Shown here one piece after another: positions 15,356 through 58,564 of a stretch of DNA of 64,000 nucleotides (position 1 is the stretch's first letter; every line of letters begins with the position of its first letter). The notes below the pieces were generated by a model, which ran no database searches, was not told the DNA's origin, and saw nothing but the letters and a program-made list of their open reading frames with translations. Made by a program: the position numbers and the translations under genes. This DNA is from an uncultured Candidatus Saccharibacteria bacterium (GTDB taxonomy: Bacteria > Patescibacteriota > Minisyncoccia > Phycocordibacterales > DATDWN01): positions 4,945 to 68,944 of the forward strand of contig CAZRVD010000003.1 of assembly GCA_964603545.1 (NCBI GenBank). Direction: 5' to 3'.

Positions 15356-16453
15356 TTAAATTTTAAACTCGATCACATCGCCGTCTTGGACTATGTATTC
15401 TTTTCCTTCTGTACGTACCAGCCCTTTTTCACGAGCAGAACCATACGAACCAACAGAAAGTAAATCATCACAATGCACAACTTCTGCTCGAATAAATTTG
15501 TCTTTAAAGTCCGTGTGGATAGCTTGACCCGCAACAGGTGCTGTAGAGTCACGCAATATTGTCCAAGCACGAGTTTCATCTTCTCCAGTTGTAAAGTATG
15601 TTATTAAGTTAAGAAGTTTATAGCCACCCTTAATTAAACTATCTATTCCATCGTCTTTTCCACCAAGTTCGACTCTAAAAACTTCTTTCTCCTCACCCTC
15701 CAAATCTTTTAATTCATTTTCTATGTTGGCGTCAATTATTACGTATTGATATTTATTCTCTTTAAAAAATTCTAAAAGTTTTTGAAACCTTAGGTCATTT
15801 GTTTCATCTAAGTTTTTTCCGCCTGCTTTTTTGTTAAGTGCGTACATTATTGGTTTAAATGTTAAAAGATTTAACATTTTTACAACAAATTTTTCTTTTT
15901 CATCTATTTCTAAGCTATTTACAAGTTTTCCTTCTTTTAAATGAGCCAAGACTTTTTGCAAAACTTCATTTTCAAAAACCGCCTCCTTTTTTCCTGCTTT
16001 TACGTCTTTTTGTAGATTACTGAGACGCTTTGTAACAGTATCTGTGTCTACTAACATAAGTTCAAAGTTTATAACTTCAATATCTGAAAGAGGGTCTATC
16101 ATTCCATGAACATGAATTACTTTGTCATCTTCAAAAATTCTTACCACCTCTACAATAGCATCAACTTCTCTAATGTTTGCTAGAAACTTATTGCCAAGAC
16201 CCTCTCCTTCACTCGCGCCCTTCACAAGCCCTGCGATATCAACAAATTCAACTACTGCTGGAATAGTTTTTTTTGATTTAGAAAATTCTGAAAGTTTCCA
16301 AAGTCTAGGATCTGGCACAGGAACAATACCTACAGATGGATCAATAGTACAAAAAGGATAGTTCTCTGCAGGGACAGACTTTTTTGTAAGTGCATTAAAA
16401 AGCGTGGACTTACCCACGTTTGGCAAACCGACAATTCCGATTGAAAGTGACAT
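15356..16453 (-). CDS. ychF: Ribosome-binding ATPase YchF (Obg-family GTPase/ATPase)
   Basis: [16 protein letters not shown]-loop and a C-terminal TGS domain. Confidence 0.9.
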
Positions 16454-16594
16454 GATTGCTACTATACATCAAAACTACATTTTTTTAAACATGGTACAAT
16501 TTTATTAGAGAGGTGTGCATGAAAATCTTTTGCGCATTGCTTATGCTCCTTATTACATCATTCACCGCAAAAGCTTTTTTTTATTAAAGAAAAG

Positions 16595-16645
16595 GCCGGT
16601 CACACGCATTGCATGACCGGGCCTTGAACCCCCTCGACCGAAGCC
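16595..16645 (-). terminator. Intrinsic terminator of the collagen-like gene
   Basis: GGCCGGTCAcacgcattgcaTGACCGGGCC hairpin, followed on the minus strand by a T-rich run. Confidence 0.55.
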
Positions 16646-16652
16646 GAGGAAC

Positions 16653-17678
16653 TTACTGCGGGGTGTGCTCGTGTATCGCCACTGCACTCAAGAGGTCTTG
16701 AGTGAGTGGAATGAGCGGAATCTTACCGTAGGTCAGAAATTGGTCGAGTGGTACCCACCCGCTGATCCAGGCCTTCCGTGCCTTGACGATTGCCAGGACG
16801 GTGTCGAGGTTGACCACGCACATGTGGAACCGCGGATTCTCCCACTGATTCTTCTCCCTGTTCAGTGTGTACATGTTGCCGATGAAGTAAAACGAGGCGG
16901 TTGAGGCCGGCTCGATGTTCGTCCATCGGAACGGTGCGACTTCTCCTCCCCGAGTGAAGCCGATGACTTCCTTCTTGTTGAGGTTGAAGAGTACCATCAC
17001 GTCCGTTTCGGGCGTGAACATGTACAGCCACTCACAGGGGCCATCCGGAGCTGGCACGGTGCCTGTGACGGTATTCGCCGTCACCACGAGACCTGGAATC
17101 TCGAAGTCCGCATGAACCTGCTTGAGGCGTTCACACATCGCGATCGTTCCCGGAGGGCCTGCCGGACCTTGCGGACCAGTTGCACCGGGAACGCCCTGTG
17201 GACCCATGGGGCCAGCCGGTCCGGGAGGTCCCGGAGGGCCGGGTTCACCATTGACCTGGTTCAGAAACCAGATCACGTGCCCAACGTACGCTCCAGCTTT
17301 AAGCTGGGTCACGCCGTTGTTGAACACCGATTTGGTGATCACGTCAACTCCATTCACCTTTTCGATAGTGTAGACCCATGCGTCGACCAGTCCCGGTGAC
17401 ACCTGCTTGACGCTGATGTTGTGAAGAGCTCCGCCCACCACGTGGACGACCTTGCACTGCCCGATTCCGAGACGTGCCGTTGTCAGCACTCCGAGGGACT
17501 CAATGCGGTAACCTGCGTAGACATTGCTACGCAGATCCTCGCAGATTTGAACGACCTCATATGTTGGCACCCCTGAAGCGTCCTCACCGACGGCTGGAAC
17601 GTTGGCCTGGGCACCTTCGGCCAACAAGTTCATGCCCAGAAAGATCGCGAGCCAGAGAACTGCCTTTATCACCTTCAT
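16653..17678 (-). CDS. Secreted collagen-like triple-helix-repeat protein (signal peptide + 11 G-X-Y triplets + C-terminal globular domain), G+C-rich foreign gene
   Basis: Start at [25 protein letters not shown], preceded by [41 protein letters not shown] run. Composition is visibly G+C-rich versus flanks. Confidence 0.7.
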
Positions 17679-17753
17679 CACTTTCTTTCTCCCTTGCCAA
17701 CTTAATGGCTTTTTGCACTGCCGAAAATGGCAACACAAATCTGTTCTGTGCGC

Positions 17754-17782
17754 ACCGTAGCACCTTTCACAATTTTTGTCAA
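17754..17782 (-). promoter_or_regulatory. sigma70-like promoter of the collagen-like gene (TTGACA -17- TACGGT)
   Basis: On the minus strand: TTGACAaaaattgtgaaaggtgcTACGGT. SD AAGGGAG lies upstream of the ATG. Confidence 0.5.
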
Positions 17783-17794
17783 GAGGTACTCCTA

Positions 17795-18058
17795 CTACAT
17801 CAAACTCTTTAAATCTGACTCATATTTTTTAACAACATTCATTGTGGCTGTCATTTGGTCCAAACCTTTTTTCATTTCTTCCTGTACCTCAAGTCCAATT
17901 TTTTCAAAAAGCTGTGGATTTTTCTCTAACATACTAAAAATCTTTTCTTGTTCGGCCTGCGGAACACCTTTCATTTTTGAAGCCAGCATTTTTTTTATAA
18001 AAAAATTTTTTATTGACATAGGGCTCATAATATCAACAAATAAACTAGTCGTCCACAT
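17795..18058 (-). CDS. Hypothetical small protein (87 aa), native composition
   Basis: ORF only. It may be a remnant or C-terminal fragment adjacent to the foreign insertion. Confidence 0.25.
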
Positions 18059-18993: not shown

Positions 18994-19902
18994 TTACCAA
19001 GCTAGGAAATTCCACCAAGGTCTACCAGAAACTGTAGTTGTTCCGGTTGCTGAAATTGAGTAAGTAATCTCAGGTGTTACTGGGAAAAGGAAGAGTAGTC
19101 TTGCTTTTCTTTTTGCCTTAACTTCATAAGTCGCAGGCGCATCATCTGTACTTTCTACTTTTACAGCAGAGACAAAACTTTCATCAGCTTTTAGTTCCAA
19201 AACTGGTGGATTGTTAAATCCTCCAACTTTTGCTCCAGGACTTGTGGCACTACCGCCTCCGCCAGAAACAGGTTTGTCTGGAACGCAATTACCATTTGCA
19301 CAAATAGAACAGTTTTCTCCCTCTTCACCATTTGGACAAATTATAATCTTATCGACATAATTTATTGTTCCCCGACCAAAATCTCTTCCCACAGGAATGA
19401 TTCCAGGCCCAGGTGTTGGAGTAGGTGTTGGACCTCCTGAAGTATCATCGTCTCCATCACTGTCATCTGCTTCAGCAACACTAACACTAAAAGTAGCACT
19501 AGTATCTGTTATATTTGCAACTTTTACCTTAAGAGCTAGAGCATTTACAGAACCGCCTTCGCTTATGGTAAATGTCTGACTATAAGCTGGAGCTCCTAGA
19601 CATCTTGGGTCAGCATTTGGTCCACACCCACCAGCAGTTGAGATATTTACTTGAACACTTCTGTTTCCACTAGACGGATTAACTGGATTTCCTAGAGGAC
19701 AAGGAGTCATGCTTGGGACACAATCACCAACACTAGAGCTTACTTTTAGAAGCTCTATCTGCATATTTTGATAATTGGTAATAGTTACTTTCTCACCAAC
19801 TTTTAAAGAAAAAGTTGAAGGATAGTTAACTGAACTGTCAGCATAGGCTACTCCAGCAGAAAGTAGTAATGCAAAAACCCCCACTAATAATGTTTTTTTC
19901 AT
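18994..19902 (-). CDS. Secreted hypothetical protein (signal peptide, Cys-rich, acidic DSDGDDD linker)
   Basis: MKKTLLVGVFALLLSAGVAYA signal peptide. Confidence 0.5.
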   Translation of the reverse strand: MKKTLLVGVFALLLSAGVAYADSSVNYPSTFSLKVGEKVTITNYQNMQIELLKVSSSVGDCVPSMTPCPLGNPVNPSSGNRSVQVNISTAGGCGPNADPRCLGAPAYSQTFTISEGGSVNALALKVKVANITDTSATFSVSVAEADDSDGDDDTSGGPTPTPTPGPGIIPVGRDFGRGTINYVDKIIICPNGEEGENCSICANGNCVPDKPVSGGGGSATSPGAKVGGFNNPPVLELKADESFVSAVKVESTDDAPATYEVKAKRKARLLFLFPVTPEITYSISATGTTTVSGRPWWNFLAW

Positions 19903-24949: not shown

Positions 24950-25092
24950 AACTACATTTTACCATTATTAACTTGAAATGGCTTAATTAAGAGAATTGGG
25001 TGTTTGAGGGATTAAATTTATATAAAGACGAAGACCGCTGGGCGAACCATGCGGTCTTAACGAGTGAGAGTCTGAACTAGGAGAGACTCAGG

Positions 25093-25350
25093 ATGGCCGT
25101 TGCGAACGCATACGAAGTTCGCAACGTTGTCTCGTCATCCATTGTTCCGTTTGCCATTGCATCTGCAGTTTCGCTGCCGAGACATGCACGGAAAAAACCA
25201 GGCTCCGCCGCCTTCTCTCTCAACCAAGCGACAATCTCGCTTTTAACCATCGGCTTCTCCTCCTCTGATTATCAGAATATCATGTTAATCGGATTTGTCA
25301 AGTTTGTGGACCATAGGACTCTTCCTTCATTCTGTTTCGCCGTCGCTTAA
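25093..25350 (+). CDS. Doubtful small ORF in a G+C-rich, hairpin-dense region; may be non-coding
   Basis: AGGAGA sits 10 nt upstream of the ATG. But the reading frame contains perfect palindromes (GTTGCGAACgcatacgaaGTTCGCAAC). Confidence 0.2.
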   Translation: MAVANAYEVRNVVSSSIVPFAIASAVSLPRHARKKPGSAAFSLNQATISLLTIGFSSSDYQNIMLIGFVKFVDHRTLPSFCFAVA

Positions 25351-26113: not shown

Positions 26114-26584
26114 ATGCTTTTATATTATGCGGAAATGGAGGTGGGTGTGGAAATCGATGCGACGATACTGATGACCAGGCAAGTTCGACTGGAAGCCAGG
26201 ATGAGACAAAATGACATCACCAGGCAAACCATCAACAAGGTTCGAAGGGTAATGGAGGAAAGGGGCTACCGTCCCGTGACTGGAGCAGACCTGATTCCCA
26301 ACCAGGAAGCTGTCCAGATTGAAATTAGCACCTGGTTCGAAGAGGGTCGACTCATGGGTGAATTTGGGGTTGCCCCAGGGACTACCATCGTGACACTCAG
26401 TGACCCACCGGTCAGAAAAATAACTGCTCCCGGGAAGTCGACCAACATGGTCTTCTTTCGTTGCGTGAAGCCAGAAAGCTCAATCGAAATGAGCATGCCG
26501 GCATACGAATTCATTCAGGAACAGTTCCAAACACGAGACCCCCAGGGTCACACCAACCTCGCCAGATACTTCGTCAAGATATGA
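26114..26584 (+). CDS. Hypothetical protein (up to 156 aa), G+C-rich foreign
   Basis: GGAGG SD before an in-frame GTG at 26147 suggests a slightly shorter product. No recognisable motif. Confidence 0.4.
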   Translation: MLLYYAEMEVGVEIDATILMTRQVRLEARMRQNDITRQTINKVRRVMEERGYRPVTGADLIPNQEAVQIEISTWFEEGRLMGEFGVAPGTTIVTLSDPPVRKITAPGKSTNMVFFRCVKPESSIEMSMPAYEFIQEQFQTRDPQGHTNLARYFVKI

Positions 26585-39011: not shown

Positions 39012-40193
39012 TTATATTACTTTACTCGTTATCCTACCATCAGAAACCATTATATCCAAGTCGTCTCCCGACCTTACATCTTTTTTGCTTTTAACTATTT
39101 TGTTACCACTTCGCACTATGCTGTATCCATGAGCTAGCTGTCTCTCTGGGTTTGAAAGTTCTATTACTTTGCCAGAGTTTTGCAGTAACTCACCCAAATC
39201 TCCCACCAAATTTTCAAATCCAGAAACCAAATCCTTTGTAAAACCGGTTATGTTTTCTTTGTAGCGATCTATACTAGACTCTATCCTATCTACAGAACGA
39301 AGTAGTGTATCTTCTGCTTTTCTAAACACTTCAATAAGTGCGTTAAAATTTGAGAAGATTTTTTCTTCATATGAATTCACCTTATAAAGCGCTTCGTTCC
39401 AAGACTGGTTCAAAAGATTAGCCACGGCAGTAGGAGTAGAAACATTTTTGTCACTTACCATACTAACAAGCGGTGCATCTTTGTCGTGCCCAATGCCCGT
39501 TATTACTGGCACACCAAAATCAGCAACTGCTCGCACCAAAACTTCGTTGTTAAAAGCTTGGAAGGACTCCAGCGAGCCTCCCCCGCGCATCATAACTAGC
39601 ACATCTAAATCTTTGTTTTTTAAAGTTTCCAAGGCTGAAAGTAAATCTTTCACAGCATCAATCCCTTCCACTTTTGAATCAACAAAAATTATTTCAAAAC
39701 CAAACTTACCAATATTTGTTAGGAAATCATTTATTACCGCACCACTTTTTGAAGTAATTACTCCAATCTTGTGTGGATACTCTGGTAAAGCTTTTTTTCT
39801 CTCAATACTAAAAAGTCCTTCTAGTTCAAGTTTCTTTTTTAATTTCTCGTAAGCTATTTGTAGTGCTCCTTCACCGACAAGTTCTATAGTTTCTACTTGT
39901 AGAGTTAGCCCACCATTTGGTTTATAAATACTTGGATAGGCAGAAACGATGATCTCCAAACCGTCGCGTAGCTCCACACCAGATACAGTAAAATCTCTCT
40001 TCCACATAAAACACTTCATGGTGCTTGCGTCTTTAGAATCTTTTATAGAAAAGTACAAATATGACCGTCCTGGATATTCCTGCACTCCAGAAACTTCTCC
40101 TATTATTCTGGCCTTCTCCTCCTTAAGATTTAAGTTTAACTTATCCAAATACTCACTAACTGAAATAATATCCGTTTGACTGTTTTGTGACAT
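39012..40193 (-). CDS. xseA: Exodeoxyribonuclease VII large subunit
   Basis: N-terminal OB-fold, 393 aa, operon with xseB. Confidence 0.85.
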   Translation of the reverse strand: MSQNSQTDIISVSEYLDKLNLNLKEEKARIIGEVSGVQEYPGRSYLYFSIKDSKDASTMKCFMWKRDFTVSGVELRDGLEIIVSAYPSIYKPNGGLTLQVETIELVGEGALQIAYEKLKKKLELEGLFSIERKKALPEYPHKIGVITSKSGAVINDFLTNIGKFGFEIIFVDSKVEGIDAVKDLLSALETLKNKDLDVLVMMRGGGSLESFQAFNNEVLVRAVADFGVPVITGIGHDKDAPLVSMVSDKNVSTPTAVANLLNQSWNEALYKVNSYEEKIFSNFNALIEVFRKAEDTLLRSVDRIESSIDRYKENITGFTKDLVSGFENLVGDLGELLQNSGKVIELSNPERQLAHGYSIVRSGNKIVKSKKDVRSGDDLDIMVSDGRITSKVI

Positions 40194-40204
40194 GAAAAAA
40201 TTTT

Positions 40205-40251
40205 ATCATAGTATACGAAACCGCCCAAGCGAAGCGCGGCTTCGCTTGGGC
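40205..40251 (-). terminator. Intrinsic terminator of the Cys-rich foreign gene
   Basis: Perfect 14-bp stem CGCCCAAGCGAAGCgcgGCTTCGCTTGGGCG then a T-rich tail on the minus strand. Confidence 0.55.
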
Positions 40252-40252
40252 G

Positions 40253-40573
40253 TCATCCAAGAATTTCTCTCTTGATCTGCTCGAGGGTCTCGAGATCATG
40301 TTCACAGGAAATGCCCTGCTCTGCACAGTTGACGCACCCGCAGTCTCTTGAAGAGCCAGCGGGGTTGACCCAAACTGCACACCATGGGCCGACAACGTCC
40401 TGACCGAGATCATCAAACGCACAAAGCGCAACCTCACAATCTCCCTCAACGAAACGGGCGAGAAGGTCATTGGGTTGACCAGGTTGGGGGAAAATCCCCA
40501 CGTAGTAGAAACCACTTGCCTGCGCGGACTCGGGTGATTTGACTTGTTCCTCCACGTATCTCATCATGCGCAC
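40253..40573 (-). CDS. Small G+C-rich foreign Cys-rich protein (106 aa, 7 Cys)
   Basis: TTGACA -35, SD GGTAGAGGTG, DCEVALCAFDD...RDCGCVNCAEQGISCEHD. Confidence 0.4.
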   Translation of the reverse strand: MRMMRYVEEQVKSPESAQASGFYYVGIFPQPGQPNDLLARFVEGDCEVALCAFDDLGQDVVGPWCAVWVNPAGSSRDCGCVNCAEQGISCEHDLETLEQIKREILG

Positions 40574-41852: not shown

Positions 41853-42039
41853 TTATTTAATTATTGAGAATTATTAAAGAACTTATTCGTTTAATATTTT
41901 TGCCTAAATTCTTATCTCGTAAGTTCAAAATGGAAGCAATGCTTACCAACAATTAGAGAAAAATCTCTGAAGGAAACTAGTGAGAATAACTCAATGCTTA
42001 CACTATAAACTATTGCGTTTCAAATGTCAAACTTGATAC

Positions 42040-42068
42040 TTGACTTTCTACATTAGAGATGCTATAAT
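42040..42068 (+). promoter_or_regulatory. Consensus sigma70 promoter (TTGACT -17- TATAAT) of the Pro-rich membrane protein cassette
   Basis: acTTGACTttctacattagagatgcTATAATtaag. Confidence 0.55.
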
Positions 42069-42147
42069 TAAGTGCAGGAATTCGTTGGTGTTGGTCTCCC
42101 CGAGGATGGGGTGAGACACTCTCGAATCTTTGACAGGGAGTACGCTC

Positions 42148-43047
42148 ATGACTCGACTGGTTCGGATTTTCGTCCTCGCCTTGGCGGTTACGCTGGTCGC
42201 CAGCACCGCAATGGCACAGAAGGGACAGTTCGTTGCTCCTGTGAATGCGGAACTCGACAAGTTCCCCATCTACAACGACGTGCTGACAGTGGCCCAGATG
42301 GCCAAGCACGAACTCACGGTGAAGGTTCTCACGGAGCCCACCGTCGTGCACAACCACTTCCGTGGCCTGCACGGCAAGGACGGGCGCTTCGTCCTGGAAC
42401 TCTTGCCCACCGGAACAATCGTGTTGGTGGACAAGGACGGTAGGATCCGCTACAAAGCGGACTGCGGGAATCGGCTGAGCGAAATGCCGCCGCCTCCCGC
42501 ACCCGTCTTGGGACCGGCGACACCCGTACCGTGCATCCCGGAAATTCTTCCGCTCGCTCCCAAACAGAGTGGGTGGTCGTGGTTCTGGGGTGGCATGTGG
42601 AATTTCCTTGCCTGGATCGCCAACGGTCTGGGCGGGTTGCTGGCAGGAATCTGGCACTGCCTGTGGTTCCTGCTGACCAGCATCGGCTGGCTGTTCCTCT
42701 TGGCGCTCATTCTGTGGTTGACATGGCGACTGTTGCGCTACCTCTTCGGAGGTAACCAGCAGAACAACGCCTGGGGAGGGGGCAACAACCCGCCTGCTCC
42801 AGTCGCACCGCTCGTCACACCGCGACAGACGGCGACGCCACCGCCGGCTCCGACACCTTCAGCAGTCGCCCCTTCGGCGATTCCTGTGGTGGCGGGACCG
42901 CTCACCACCCCCGATCGCTCTTTCCTGAACTTCAACCCAGGGGATGTGGGTCGTCCGGACATGCTGACGTGGGGCGGGCGGATCACTCCGCACTCCTACG
43001 AGGACCGGCCGGACGGGAGTCACGCACTCCGATTCTATCGGAGGTAA
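42148..43047 (+). CDS. G+C-rich foreign secreted/membrane protein (signal peptide, two central TM helices, Pro/Ala-rich C-terminal region)
   Basis: AGGGAG SD before the MTRLVRIFVLALAVTLVASTAMAQ start. The region is very G+C-rich. Confidence 0.5.
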   Translation: MTRLVRIFVLALAVTLVASTAMAQKGQFVAPVNAELDKFPIYNDVLTVAQMAKHELTVKVLTEPTVVHNHFRGLHGKDGRFVLELLPTGTIVLVDKDGRIRYKADCGNRLSEMPPPPAPVLGPATPVPCIPEILPLAPKQSGWSWFWGGMWNFLAWIANGLGGLLAGIWHCLWFLLTSIGWLFLLALILWLTWRLLRYLFGGNQQNNAWGGGNNPPAPVAPLVTPRQTATPPPAPTPSAVAPSAIPVVAGPLTTPDRSFLNFNPGDVGRPDMLTWGGRITPHSYEDRPDGSHALRFYRR

Positions 43048-43066
43048 CATAGAGGGGTCATCCCTC

Positions 43067-43105
43067 GGCGGCAGGTCCCACAAGACCTGCCGCCATTTCG
43101 TATAC
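43067..43105 (+). terminator. Intrinsic terminator of the 42148-43047 gene
   Basis: Perfect 11-bp stem GGCGGCAGGTCccacaaGACCTGCCGCC followed by ATTTCGTAT. Confidence 0.6.
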
Positions 43106-43418
43106 AAAATATAATATTTGTGGTCTATATTTTTATGCACAGAAAATTGACACTTGTAAACAAGATATGCACAGTATATCCACTAAATTCACACTTATAT
43201 ATTATTGACAAATGGTACCCTTGGAACAAAATTATAGTAGGTACAAAATCAATGAAGACATCCTCAAAATAAATAGTGAAATTAGTCTCGTCCCCGTGAG
43301 CCTTATGAACTCACACAAGAGACAAAAATTATCACAAATCGGGATGCGCCTTCACCCGAAAGTACCAGCGAAAACAAAGCCTCTCGTAATATCTACGGAG
43401 GTCTTTGTTTTGCATTTT

Positions 43419-43891: not shown

Positions 43892-44542
43892 ATGTCTTCA
43901 CGACAGAAAGTAACGGACCTGCTTTTTGCGGTCCAGTTTGTTGGTGCAGCCTTGTTTTGTGGTGGCTACATCATGCGGTCGTTCTCAGACGTCACTGGAT
44001 CAAGCGTAGCACAGTTTGGCCTGGTAGAGATGTTTCTCTTGTTTCAATTGGCTCTAACGGTTAGTGCACACCGCACTTCCCCGAGTCGCTTAACGGAACA
44101 AGCAATCTGTACCTACCTGTTCTGGTTCATCCTCATGTTCCTCGTTATTGCTGTGGTGCTACTAAACCCAGCATACCGATGGAATGAAAAGGACACCACA
44201 ACTGCAATCGTTGCATTGGTTCTGACAGTTCTGACCCTTAGCTTTAACTACGCAAACGGGTCATCACTCAAAGACCCTTTCATCCGAGCACTGTTCGCAA
44301 TCGCGTACAAGTCAGTTCCCCAAGTACTCCTTGCCTGGAAATTCCTGGCAGAGGGCGCCTCGGGTACACCTGACTTGTCTGTGTATGTTGGACACGCCAC
44401 AATTCTCATTCGTCTTGGCCAGATCTACTTCATGGGAAAGGAAGCAGGCTGGGACCGAAACAGAATGTGGCTCTGGAGAAGCGAATGGGCCAACGAGATT
44501 AGTTGGCTTGTCGCCACAGTTGCGTGGTTTTTGGTTTCCTGA
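43892..44542 (+). CDS. G+C-rich foreign polytopic membrane protein (216 aa)
   Basis: GAGAGGAGG SD. Five to six hydrophobic helices. GGCCCTGGTCgaaaGACCCGGGCC terminator hairpin at 44549-44572. Confidence 0.5.
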   Translation: MSSRQKVTDLLFAVQFVGAALFCGGYIMRSFSDVTGSSVAQFGLVEMFLLFQLALTVSAHRTSPSRLTEQAICTYLFWFILMFLVIAVVLLNPAYRWNEKDTTTAIVALVLTVLTLSFNYANGSSLKDPFIRALFAIAYKSVPQVLLAWKFLAEGASGTPDLSVYVGHATILIRLGQIYFMGKEAGWDRNRMWLWRSEWANEISWLVATVAWFLVS

Positions 44543-58031: not shown

Positions 58032-58439
58032 CTAGCCGACCTGGAAGGTCCTCATCAGGGTTTCCGAGGTCGCCGCCTCGAGGTCGCTTGCGAGAATCCT
58101 CGCCAGCATCGGATGCTCTCCGCTGACTGCGGTTCCACAGCTCTTCGGGATGACCCCGTCCACTGCCTCGTTCCGGTGTGGCATGACTGAGTACATGTAG
58201 AACCGAACCTGCGGATTGACCTGCTTTACCAGGCGGGCCAACTGCGAGCCCTCGATATGGCTGTCGAAGACCTGACCAGAGACCACGAACGCCGGAGAGC
58301 CATCCATCACAGCGTCCAGAACGGCTTCTGGAATACTGGTGAAGAGGATCTCCCGGGATCTCGCAGGATCGATCTTGGCAACCCCCTCCTTGATTCCGAG
58401 CAGATTCTCGCGATGACGCTGAGCCACGATGATCTTCAT
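58032..58439 (-). CDS. G+C-rich foreign hypothetical protein (136 aa)
   Basis: AAGGGAGGG SD before MKIIVAQ. GGGCGCATcccccgaaggaaATGCGCCC hairpin downstream at 57988-58015. No confident family assignment. Confidence 0.4.
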   Translation of the reverse strand: MKIIVAQRHRENLLGIKEGVAKIDPARSREILFTSIPEAVLDAVMDGSPAFVVSGQVFDSHIEGSQLARLVKQVNPQVRFYMYSVMPHRNEAVDGVIPKSCGTAVSGEHPMLARILASDLEAATSETLMRTFQVG

Positions 58440-58564
58440 ATGCCCTCCCTTGGGTAGAAACAACGAACAGAAATCCTGAACCTTATGACATTATACACCC
58501 GTTTACTATTATTGTCAAATACAATTTTAGTACTAAAACAACCTTACTTATACGACCAAAATTA

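Follow-up and report, generated by a model that had tools for sequence, protein, structure and literature searches.

Genes and features of the collagen-like locus

The stretch of DNA analysed here, a 64-kb window of a metagenome-assembled genome (MAG) of Parcubacteria with 35-38% guanine + cytosine (GC), carries on its reverse strand a gene for a collagen-like protein with a signal peptide. The bacterium is a tiny groundwater organism, probably with a symbiotic lifestyle. The gene lies between ychF and a conserved small open reading frame (ORF) and has its own promoter and terminator. The features of the locus are as follows (aa, amino acids; UTR, untranslated region).

15356..16453, minus strand: ychF, the downstream boundary of the slot
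16586..16625, minus strand: intrinsic terminator, stem GGCCCGGUCAUGC...GUGUGACCGGCC, then a U-run
16627..16654, minus strand: first 3' hairpin, CCUCGGC-UUCG-GUCGAGG, directly after the stop codon
16653..17678, minus strand: coding sequence, 341 aa plus stop, ATG start; product identical to GenBank TSC70766.1
16656..17147, minus strand: C-domain, aa 178-341 (164 aa), a seven-strand antiparallel sheet with helices, ending ...HTPQ (alignments and AlphaFold2 model)
17142..17249, minus strand: collagen-like G-X-Y run, aa 144-179, 11 triplets and a twelfth, G-T-I (sequence, Pfam and alignment)
17250..17603, minus strand: N-domain, aa 26-143 (about 118 aa), nine-strand and all-β (AlphaFold2 model and alignment)
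17604..17678, minus strand: signal peptide, aa 1-25 (MKVIK, hydrophobic core, AQA), read from the sequence
17679..17753, minus strand: 5' UTR (about 70 nt) with small hairpins and a GGGAG ribosome-binding site at 17693-17689
17754..17782, minus strand: promoter, -35 box TTGACA at 17782-17777, 14-nt spacer, extended -10 element TGcTACGGT at 17762-17754 (sequence)
17795..18019, minus strand: conserved 74-aa neighbour ORF, 72-88% identical between loci, the anchor of the slot

A preliminary description of the region 16595-17782 had proposed this anatomy (a 341-aa protein with a signal peptide, an N-terminal domain, 11 G-X-Y triplets and a C-terminal domain), the position of the gene between ychF and a small ORF, and a promoter and terminator of its own. 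All of this was confirmed, and the limits of that region match the terminator end and the -35 box. The name under which TSC70766.1 is deposited ("collagen, type IX, alpha") is an automatic label. A full-text literature search for "collagen-like" together with "Patescibacteria" found no paper about such a protein.

The signal peptide has n, h and c regions and an A-x-A site of the Sec/signal peptidase I type, with predicted cleavage before N26. An equivalent end (...AQ or AQQ) is present in all alleles. The N-domain was modelled by AlphaFold2 with a pLDDT (predicted local distance difference test) of 80-90 across residues 40-140, and the alignment contains a conserved pair of cysteines (C46 and C75). 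No match to it was found in Pfam, PDB or NCBIfam, and its homologues are so far restricted to alleles from the Candidate Phyla Radiation (CPR).

The G-X-Y run is uninterrupted and contains 15 prolines in 33 residues, in keeping with the structural definition of a collagen-like protein. No second run of this kind exists in the six frames of the window. The preliminary description had considered that the run might be a translation of non-coding GC-rich repeat DNA. This idea was refuted: the glycine and proline columns are invariant across nine homologues and ordered domains stand on both sides, so the run is coding and not a chance translation. The Pfam model Collagen (PF01391) gives 26.0 bits (E = 7.8e-6), just below the gathering threshold of 27.2 bits because the run is short; two relatives pass the threshold (P0006 with 32.5 bits and an ORF of locus L007 with 50.9 bits). 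Modelled as a monomer, the run has a pLDDT below 50, as expected for a monomer.

The C-domain was modelled from an 18-sequence alignment with a pLDDT of 81 and a pTM (predicted template modelling score) of 0.77. Three residues are invariant across the 18 sequences (D191, W252 and C287) and H285 is nearly invariant; in C-domain numbering these are D14, W75, C110 and H108. G318 is also invariant in the alignments. The aspartate, cysteine and histidine could represent either an active or metal site or a trimer interface. The domain matches no family or fold in Pfam, NCBIfam or PDB. A C1q/TNF-like or phage tail-fibre fold, which the preliminary description had suggested looking for, was not found: Foldseek searches of PDB and BFVD returned nothing below E = 0.005.

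The protein ends in ...AIHEHTPQ, without LPXTG or a hydrophobic tail. An end in -PQ or -PQQ (window positions 16656-16661) occurs in 8 of 10 CPR alleles, even where the C-domains are unrelated (P0006, P0033). The confirmed homologues from GC-rich genomes mostly have other C-terminal ends. The shared end could be a retention or processing signal, or merely a 3' recombination junction.

Upstream of the gene, the motif TTGACA-N14-TGnTAnnnT precedes all ten complete alleles, and the two strands of the window together contain only five copies of the extended -10 consensus motif. The fold of the 5' UTR is weak (minimum free energy -17 kcal/mol, z = -1.4), and its counterpart at locus L014 has z = -3.6. 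Hairpins of the AGAGCUnnn type recur in the 5' UTRs of L001, L002, L004, L014 and L018. The two 3' hairpins together reach -35 kcal/mol (z = -4.8), and strong 3' hairpins are found across the alleles (z = -4.8 to -7). Neither the UTRs nor the other spots of raised GC in the window contain a known RNA according to Rfam, whose only hit was tRNA-Ala, and PADLOC found no defence-system match.

A syntenic slot in related Parcubacteria

A homologous cassette occupies the same slot at 13 related Parcubacteria (CPR) loci, counting that of the window, and at ten of them the gene is complete. The shared gene order is yceG, the 74-aa ORF, usually a flavodoxin-like gene, the collagen-like gene, zero to two further genes, ychF, cupin, DUF5671 and leuS. 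Full-length homologues are few, and each is found on a low-GC contig with this order. The complete alleles other than that of the window are:

L001: P0005
L002: P0008
L004: P0006
L005: P0002
L006: P0033
L010: P0003
L014-L017: P0104
L018: P0105
L052: P0004

The remaining loci (L019-L021) were added by searching metagenome contigs for the 74-aa ORF, an anchor that is blind to the allele. They share the promoter, UTR and signal peptide, and their contigs end 100-250 nt into the cassette gene. Such breaks fit a strain-variable or compositionally deviant gene.

All ten complete alleles possess the same shell: the promoter, a leader of 41-88 nt with small hairpins, a GGAG-type ribosome-binding site, a hairpin right after the stop codon, and a strong terminator. 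The loop region of the terminator (CGYAC-cauau-GUGURCG) is recognisably homologous in most loci. At L005 the annotated ATG of P0002 (position 1409) lacks a ribosome-binding site. Translation more probably starts at a TTG further upstream in the same frame, which follows AAAGGAGG and would give the signal peptide a proper n-region.

In more distant relatives (L029, L036, L039, L042) the slot is empty: ychF comes next after the small ORF, or after the small ORF and flavodoxin (10 nt from the small ORF at L029). In some similarly related genomes other genes fill it (L022, L024, L026). The gene is therefore an insertion relative to the ancestral arrangement, but a lineage-wide one, and the slot is a variable region.

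Exchange of modules between alleles

Between genomes the flanking proteins are 65-94% identical, whereas the cassette protein is only 22-56% identical. Identity is also distributed unevenly between the N- and C-terminal modules of the same pair of alleles:

P0005 and P0006: N-module 81%, C-module 23% (unrelated)
P0004 and P0104: N-module 24% (unrelated), C-module 75%
P0003 and P0004: N-module 76%, C-module 42%
P0001 and P0002: N-module 30%, C-module 62%

P0008 lacks the N-domain altogether, and P0006 and P0033 carry C-modules unrelated to the others in the same slot. These incongruent identities mean that the modules were reassorted, with the break in or beside the stretch coding for G-X-Y. 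By analogy, the pattern resembles that of receptor-binding proteins under diversifying selection.

A diversity-generating retroelement target or another form of local hypermutation was considered and rejected, since there is no template repeat within the window: no part of the gene is repeated anywhere in these 64 kb, the ORFs of which were not scanned for reverse transcriptase.

Homologues and origin of the C-domain

Searched exhaustively with HMMER, 1.84 billion representatives yielded only 13 proteins that match the C-domain at E <= 0.001. A scan of GTDB species genomes with a 4-sequence sub-alignment of the domain located it in one Vicinamibacterales MAG and in another MAG of Acidobacteriota. 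In the Acidobacteriota version the signal peptide is followed by a long collagen run, a C-x-x-x-C staple and then the C-domain, and the composition of the gene is native (72% GC, GC at third codon positions [GC3] 0.85). Two further members (P0007 and P0096) lie on contigs of uniformly 65-70% GC. The family is native in bacteria of 65-72% GC, where the gene stands among chromosomal genes.

The preliminary description had called for a phylogeny of the domains flanking the collagen run. For the C-domain, a neighbour-joining tree was computed (19 sequences, 147 columns, 200 bootstraps), and in it the CPR alleles are polyphyletic among the GC-rich homologues, with at least three separate lineages. 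P0008 is paired with P0096, from a 65% GC contig, with a bootstrap of 100%. P0003, P0004, P0005, P0104 and P0105 form a clade inside a group that includes the Acidobacteriota sequences and is also supported at 100%. The window allele and P0002 (L005) make up the third, long-branched lineage. The best match of P0003 is an Acidobacteriota protein (51%).

No relatives of the C-domain types were found among IMG/VR viral contigs, INPHARED phages or PLSDB plasmids. Together with the GC-rich homologues, these negatives support a gene pool shared with high-GC bacteria and leave a phage source unsupported.

Two giant proteins (P0091, 5578 aa; P0098, 5080 aa) contain up to 39 stretches matching C-domain residues 10-56, with a summed E of 1e-31. 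The stretches are either repeats distantly related to the first β-hairpins of the head or alike in composition only; the P0091 match looks like summed weak similarity between β-strand repeats.

Base composition of the cassette

The gene has a GC content of 58% (0.56-0.61 inside, 0.30-0.39 outside), with 0.62, 0.43 and 0.69 at the three codon positions. The neighbouring genes have a GC3 of 0.18-0.36, the median GC3 of the window is 0.30, and the GC content of the gene stands against a background of 0.38. The strongly GC-rich DNA noticed in the preliminary description is thus real. Since GC3 is 0.66-0.74 in the non-collagen domains, the richness is not due to glycine and proline codons. A fit with two change points places the start of the GC-rich block just after the start codon and its end exactly at the last base of the terminator stem. 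In six of the seven units fitted, the block has the same extent as the transcript, beginning at the -10 region and ending at the terminator stem. Every complete allele is GC-rich (10/10; GC 0.56-0.63, GC3 0.63-0.83), and the rest of their loci has 0.31-0.37 GC.

The four-fold degenerate sites of the flanking genes are near saturation between genomes: their GC content (GC4) is 0.08-0.18, and the memory of the base class (S, G or C; W, A or T) is 0.04-0.28. For the C-modules the observed GC4 is 0.47-0.69, mostly above the 0.31-0.56 expected from neutral decay at the flank rate from a start of 0.95 (n = 38-49 sites). The model behind this expectation is crude and uses small samples, and its assumption that gene and genome diverged together conflicts in part with the incongruence of the modules. 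The N- and C-modules of an allele have the same GC3, whatever their ancestries. The CPR C-modules have a FYMINK fraction (amino acids F, Y, M, I, N and K) of 0.24-0.35, which is of the AT type, against 0.16-0.17 in the GC-rich homologues, and yet their GC3 is still 0.65-0.87. Amino acids of the AT type combined with GC-rich synonymous sites are the reverse of the order expected from plain amelioration. Taken together, either whole genes are frequently re-imported from unsampled donors or some force holds the synonymous sites GC-rich across the transcript.

An attempt to polarise AT→GC against GC→AT changes by parsimony was discarded as uninformative. The AT-rich flanks used as control gave an equilibrium GC3 of 0.51-0.76, a saturation artefact.

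The cassette has the deviant composition of a genomic island. The other marks of an island are lacking: it is a single gene, it has no recombinase, the only tRNA is 8 kb away, and the flanking repeat (15/19) is within chance. This repeat is an imperfect 19-nt direct repeat that brackets the cassette (16496-16514 and 17769-17787); the -35 box overlaps one copy, and the second is situated upstream of ychF. The repeat may be left over from a duplicated ychF promoter or target site, or may have arisen by chance in AT-rich DNA.

Other compositional outliers and repeats of the window

A second single-gene GC-rich island lies at 42003-43205, with an ORF at 42148..43047 on the plus strand (GC 0.62, GC3 0.75). 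It has a TTGACT-N14-TGcTATAAT promoter at 42040, a 79-nt leader, a GGGAG site and a terminator of -33 kcal/mol (z = -7.5). The product (299 aa; TSC70792.1, hypothetical) contains a signal peptide, proline-rich linkers and a tryptophan-rich transmembrane segment, and its sole family match, to DUF6777, is weak. Further ORFs with outlying GC3 are found at 58032-58463 (minus strand, 0.74), 26114-26584 (plus, 0.59), 43892-44542 (plus, 0.54) and 40156-40515 (minus, 0.61). About 10% of the ORFs of the window look compositionally foreign. One of the five extended -10 consensus promoters (43816) stands in front of the ORF at 43892. Another of these promoters (25301) stands upstream of a GC-elevated stretch (>= 0.5) at 25025-25330 on the minus strand, which adjoins tRNA-Ala and contains no convincing ORF. 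It could encode a structured RNA not yet recognised; at gathering thresholds Rfam reported the tRNA alone.

A conserved neighbouring ORF at 18994-19902 (minus strand) encodes a 302-aa secreted protein with a linker rich in glycine, proline and aspartate and without a family match. Its GC3 is 0.19 despite a GC of 0.52 at second codon positions, so that it is a secreted protein of native composition, in contrast to the cassette. ORFs of similar length are found at the same position in L001 and L006.

Two families of perfect palindromes were also detected. TTTCACAGCGATATATCGCTGTGAAA is present in four copies (36282, 36582, 63096 and 63556, in pairs 300 and 460 bp apart) and TGTGCAACATCGGATGTTGCACA in three (28118, 57258 and 59618). 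Both may be operator sites or terminator-like elements.

Function and origin of the cassette

There is about an even chance that the gene encodes a strongly expressed, secreted surface fibre with which the bacterium recognises or adheres to a partner cell, a host or a substrate. The grounds for this, beside the collagen stalk, are the signal peptide, a near-consensus promoter, a message bounded by stable hairpins, and globular modules that are swapped between lineages. G-X-Y repeats are an established trimerising stalk, and the protein would most likely trimerise through its short collagen stretch into a small fibre that bears a β-sandwich module on one end and a novel globular head on the other. 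The gene sits in a fixed expression slot common to this clade of Parcubacteria, between the 74-aa ORF (with or without flavodoxin) and ychF. The shell of the slot (consensus extended -10 promoter, hairpin leader, strong ribosome-binding site, signal peptide, protective 3' hairpin and strong terminator) is inherited. The coding modules within it are hypervariable and have been reassorted by recombination, for which the G-X-Y-coding stretch serves as the joint. The head belongs to the family native in high-GC bacteria (Acidobacteriota/Vicinamibacterales). The parts of the fibre would be drawn from a GC-rich gene pool, and the diversity would be kept by selection, as in Scl, BclA and Pasteuria fibres and in phage receptor-binding proteins, to none of which families the protein belongs. 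The host-interaction role suggested in the preliminary description is a plausible hypothesis.

Several points weigh against this picture of an adhesive fibre. Its high expression, secretion, trimerisation and surface attachment are argued on indirect grounds. The 11 triplets would give a short helix, the nucleation of which probably relies on the flanking domains, and no cell-wall anchor (LPXTG, SLH domain, lipobox or transmembrane segment) is recognisable. The invariant aspartate and cysteine and the near-invariant histidine could mean an enzyme or a metal site instead of a binding head. The tree is a distance tree built on 147 columns. Identity to the closest GC-rich homologues reaches only 51-54%, which points to no recent donor, and it is composition alone that indicates the direction of transfer. 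Simple repeated import of heads leaves unexplained both the equal GC3 of the two modules and the GC-richness of an N-module without a known GC-rich homologue.

Part of the evidence could be read as one recent event in which a foreign GC-rich gene entered this genome horizontally and has had too little time for amelioration. The compositional boundaries are sharp, the slot is empty in deeper relatives and GC-rich homologues exist, and to this extent the horizontal acquisition claimed in the preliminary description holds. A lone insertion does not: cassettes with homologous promoter, UTRs and terminator stand in the same slot at 12 other loci, the complete alleles are all GC-rich while their flanks are saturated, and a protein identity of 22-56% makes one recently spreading element unlikely. 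A single recent event is therefore very improbable. An origin as a domesticated phage tail fibre, receptor-binding protein or prophage remnant must likewise be regarded as very improbable. Phage fibres typically have collagen repeats and shuffled modules, and PHROG tail-fibre families match the protein with E down to 2e-9, but every one of these matches is confined to the G-X-Y run (residues ~143-178). The viral, phage and plasmid collections contain no relatives of the C-domain, BFVD yields no fold match, the neighbours are housekeeping genes, no phage gene lies at any of the loci, and the context in GC-rich bacteria is chromosomal. The likelihood of an artefact, either a chimeric assembly or a non-coding GC-rich repeat that translates as G-X-Y, is next to nil. 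The genome is metagenome-assembled, but 13 loci show the same junctions in assemblies made independently (NCBI, JGI and Logan), and a chimera is thereby ruled out; the ORF is intact, with conserved domains flanking the repeat, and the order GC3 > GC1 > GC2 and the pattern of conservation are those of a coding gene.

A gene long resident in the lineage, with its high synonymous G+C actively maintained across the transcription unit and not repeatedly imported, is a real if tentative possibility. Maintenance could come from selection on the mRNA (stability against AU-directed RNases, structure, or a translation pace suited to triple-helix folding or to secretion) or from GC-biased gene conversion at a recombination hot spot. 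It would suit the coincidence of block and transcript in six of seven units, the equal GC3 of the two modules, the AT-type amino acids of the CPR C-modules beside their GC-rich synonymous sites, the GC4 values mostly above neutral decay, and the second GC-rich unit of like architecture at 42.0-43.1 kb. On the other side, we know of no mechanism for such maintenance in this lineage, the decay model has the weaknesses described above, the polarised W↔S counts failed their flank control, and the polyphyly with GC-rich homologues favours import. It is decidedly unlikely that the head is a secreted enzyme or metal-binding module on a collagen stalk, acting for example on the envelope of a partner. 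The conserved aspartate, tryptophan, cysteine and histidine speak for it, but no enzyme family or fold in Pfam, NCBIfam or PDB matches the domain, and the unrelated C-modules of P0006 and P0033 in the same slot fit interchangeable binding heads better than a fixed enzyme.

The adhesive fibre can be extended to a bolder proposal, which is rather unlikely to hold as a whole: the slot would exchange modules with a pool shared with Acidobacteriota, possibly the hosts, the head would point to the partner, and the GC-rich synonymous sites would be actively maintained. If true, the gene would have a compositional equilibrium of its own, predicted by neither amelioration theory nor ordinary codon bias.

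CPR bacteria (Patescibacteria) are thought to live attached to other cells. To our knowledge, no host and no attachment molecule has been identified for Parcubacteria, and the locus offers a concrete candidate for an attachment fibre in this group. The slot is easily recognised by synteny, so further alleles can be harvested from metagenomes through the 74-aa anchor. A head shared with Acidobacteriota gives a testable hypothesis on gene flow and perhaps on partnership. The persistent GC3 anomaly bears on the dating and interpretation of "islands" of horizontal gene transfer in reduced genomes.

Comparison with known systems

The preliminary description had placed the protein among bacterial and phage collagen-like proteins. 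The kinship is present in the G-X-Y run and absent outside it. Like the streptococcal collagen-like adhesins Scl1 and Scl2 (NF038330 and NF038329) and Legionella Lcl (NF046116), the window protein is predicted to be secreted and has a globular variable domain beside a G-X-Y stalk; hypervariability between strains is another likeness, and an adhesive role would be a further one. The similarity to these families is confined to the run, with 19-23 bits against cut-offs of 325-500 (NF038330: 19.1 bits, cut-off 400; NF038329: 22.7 bits, cut-off 325), so that the protein as a whole does not belong to Scl. It also differs in the lack of LPXTG, in having 11 triplets instead of ~50-80, and in its globular domains on both sides of the stalk.

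BclA of the Bacillus anthracis exosporium (PDB 1wck) has a comparable layout of N-terminal attachment region, collagen stalk and C-terminal globular trimeric head, and forms a strongly expressed surface nap, as the window protein may do. The BclA head is a C1q/TNF-like jelly roll. 1wck matches the window protein in the collagen part alone, and neither the whole model nor the C-domain model retrieved the BclA head or any jelly roll. Phage tail fibres and receptor-binding proteins with collagen-like segments (for example PHROG 5073, 10972 and 6320) share the short collagen trimerising linker and the mosaic exchange of N and C modules. They differ in that the cassette has no phage context and no homology to them outside the repeat, being a lone chromosomal gene with its own promoter and terminator.

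A precedent within CPR is a Gracilibacterium with one locally hypervariable gene for a secreted protein, which fragments assemblies and shares a repeat with a surface protein of co-occurring Colwellia; the sharing was proposed as a clue to the partner (PMC6851277). That gene has a PTD repeat varying at the nucleotide level in one population (PMC6851277), whereas in the slot described here whole modules of foreign composition are exchanged between species.

The Acidobacteriota proteins, such as the product of a 349-aa ORF in the Vicinamibacterales MAG (JBFWNR010000003.1), resemble the window protein in the signal peptide, the collagen run and the C-domain family, with 27-35% identity to the window C-domain and up to 51% to P0003. 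They differ in their native GC content (72%), much longer collagen runs, a C-x-x-x-C staple after a helix, and the absence of a β-sandwich N-domain and of shared UTR elements. Among these systems, the gene product is best placed as a bacterial collagen-like, probable surface protein with two uncharacterised domains, encoded in a hypervariable slot specific to its lineage.

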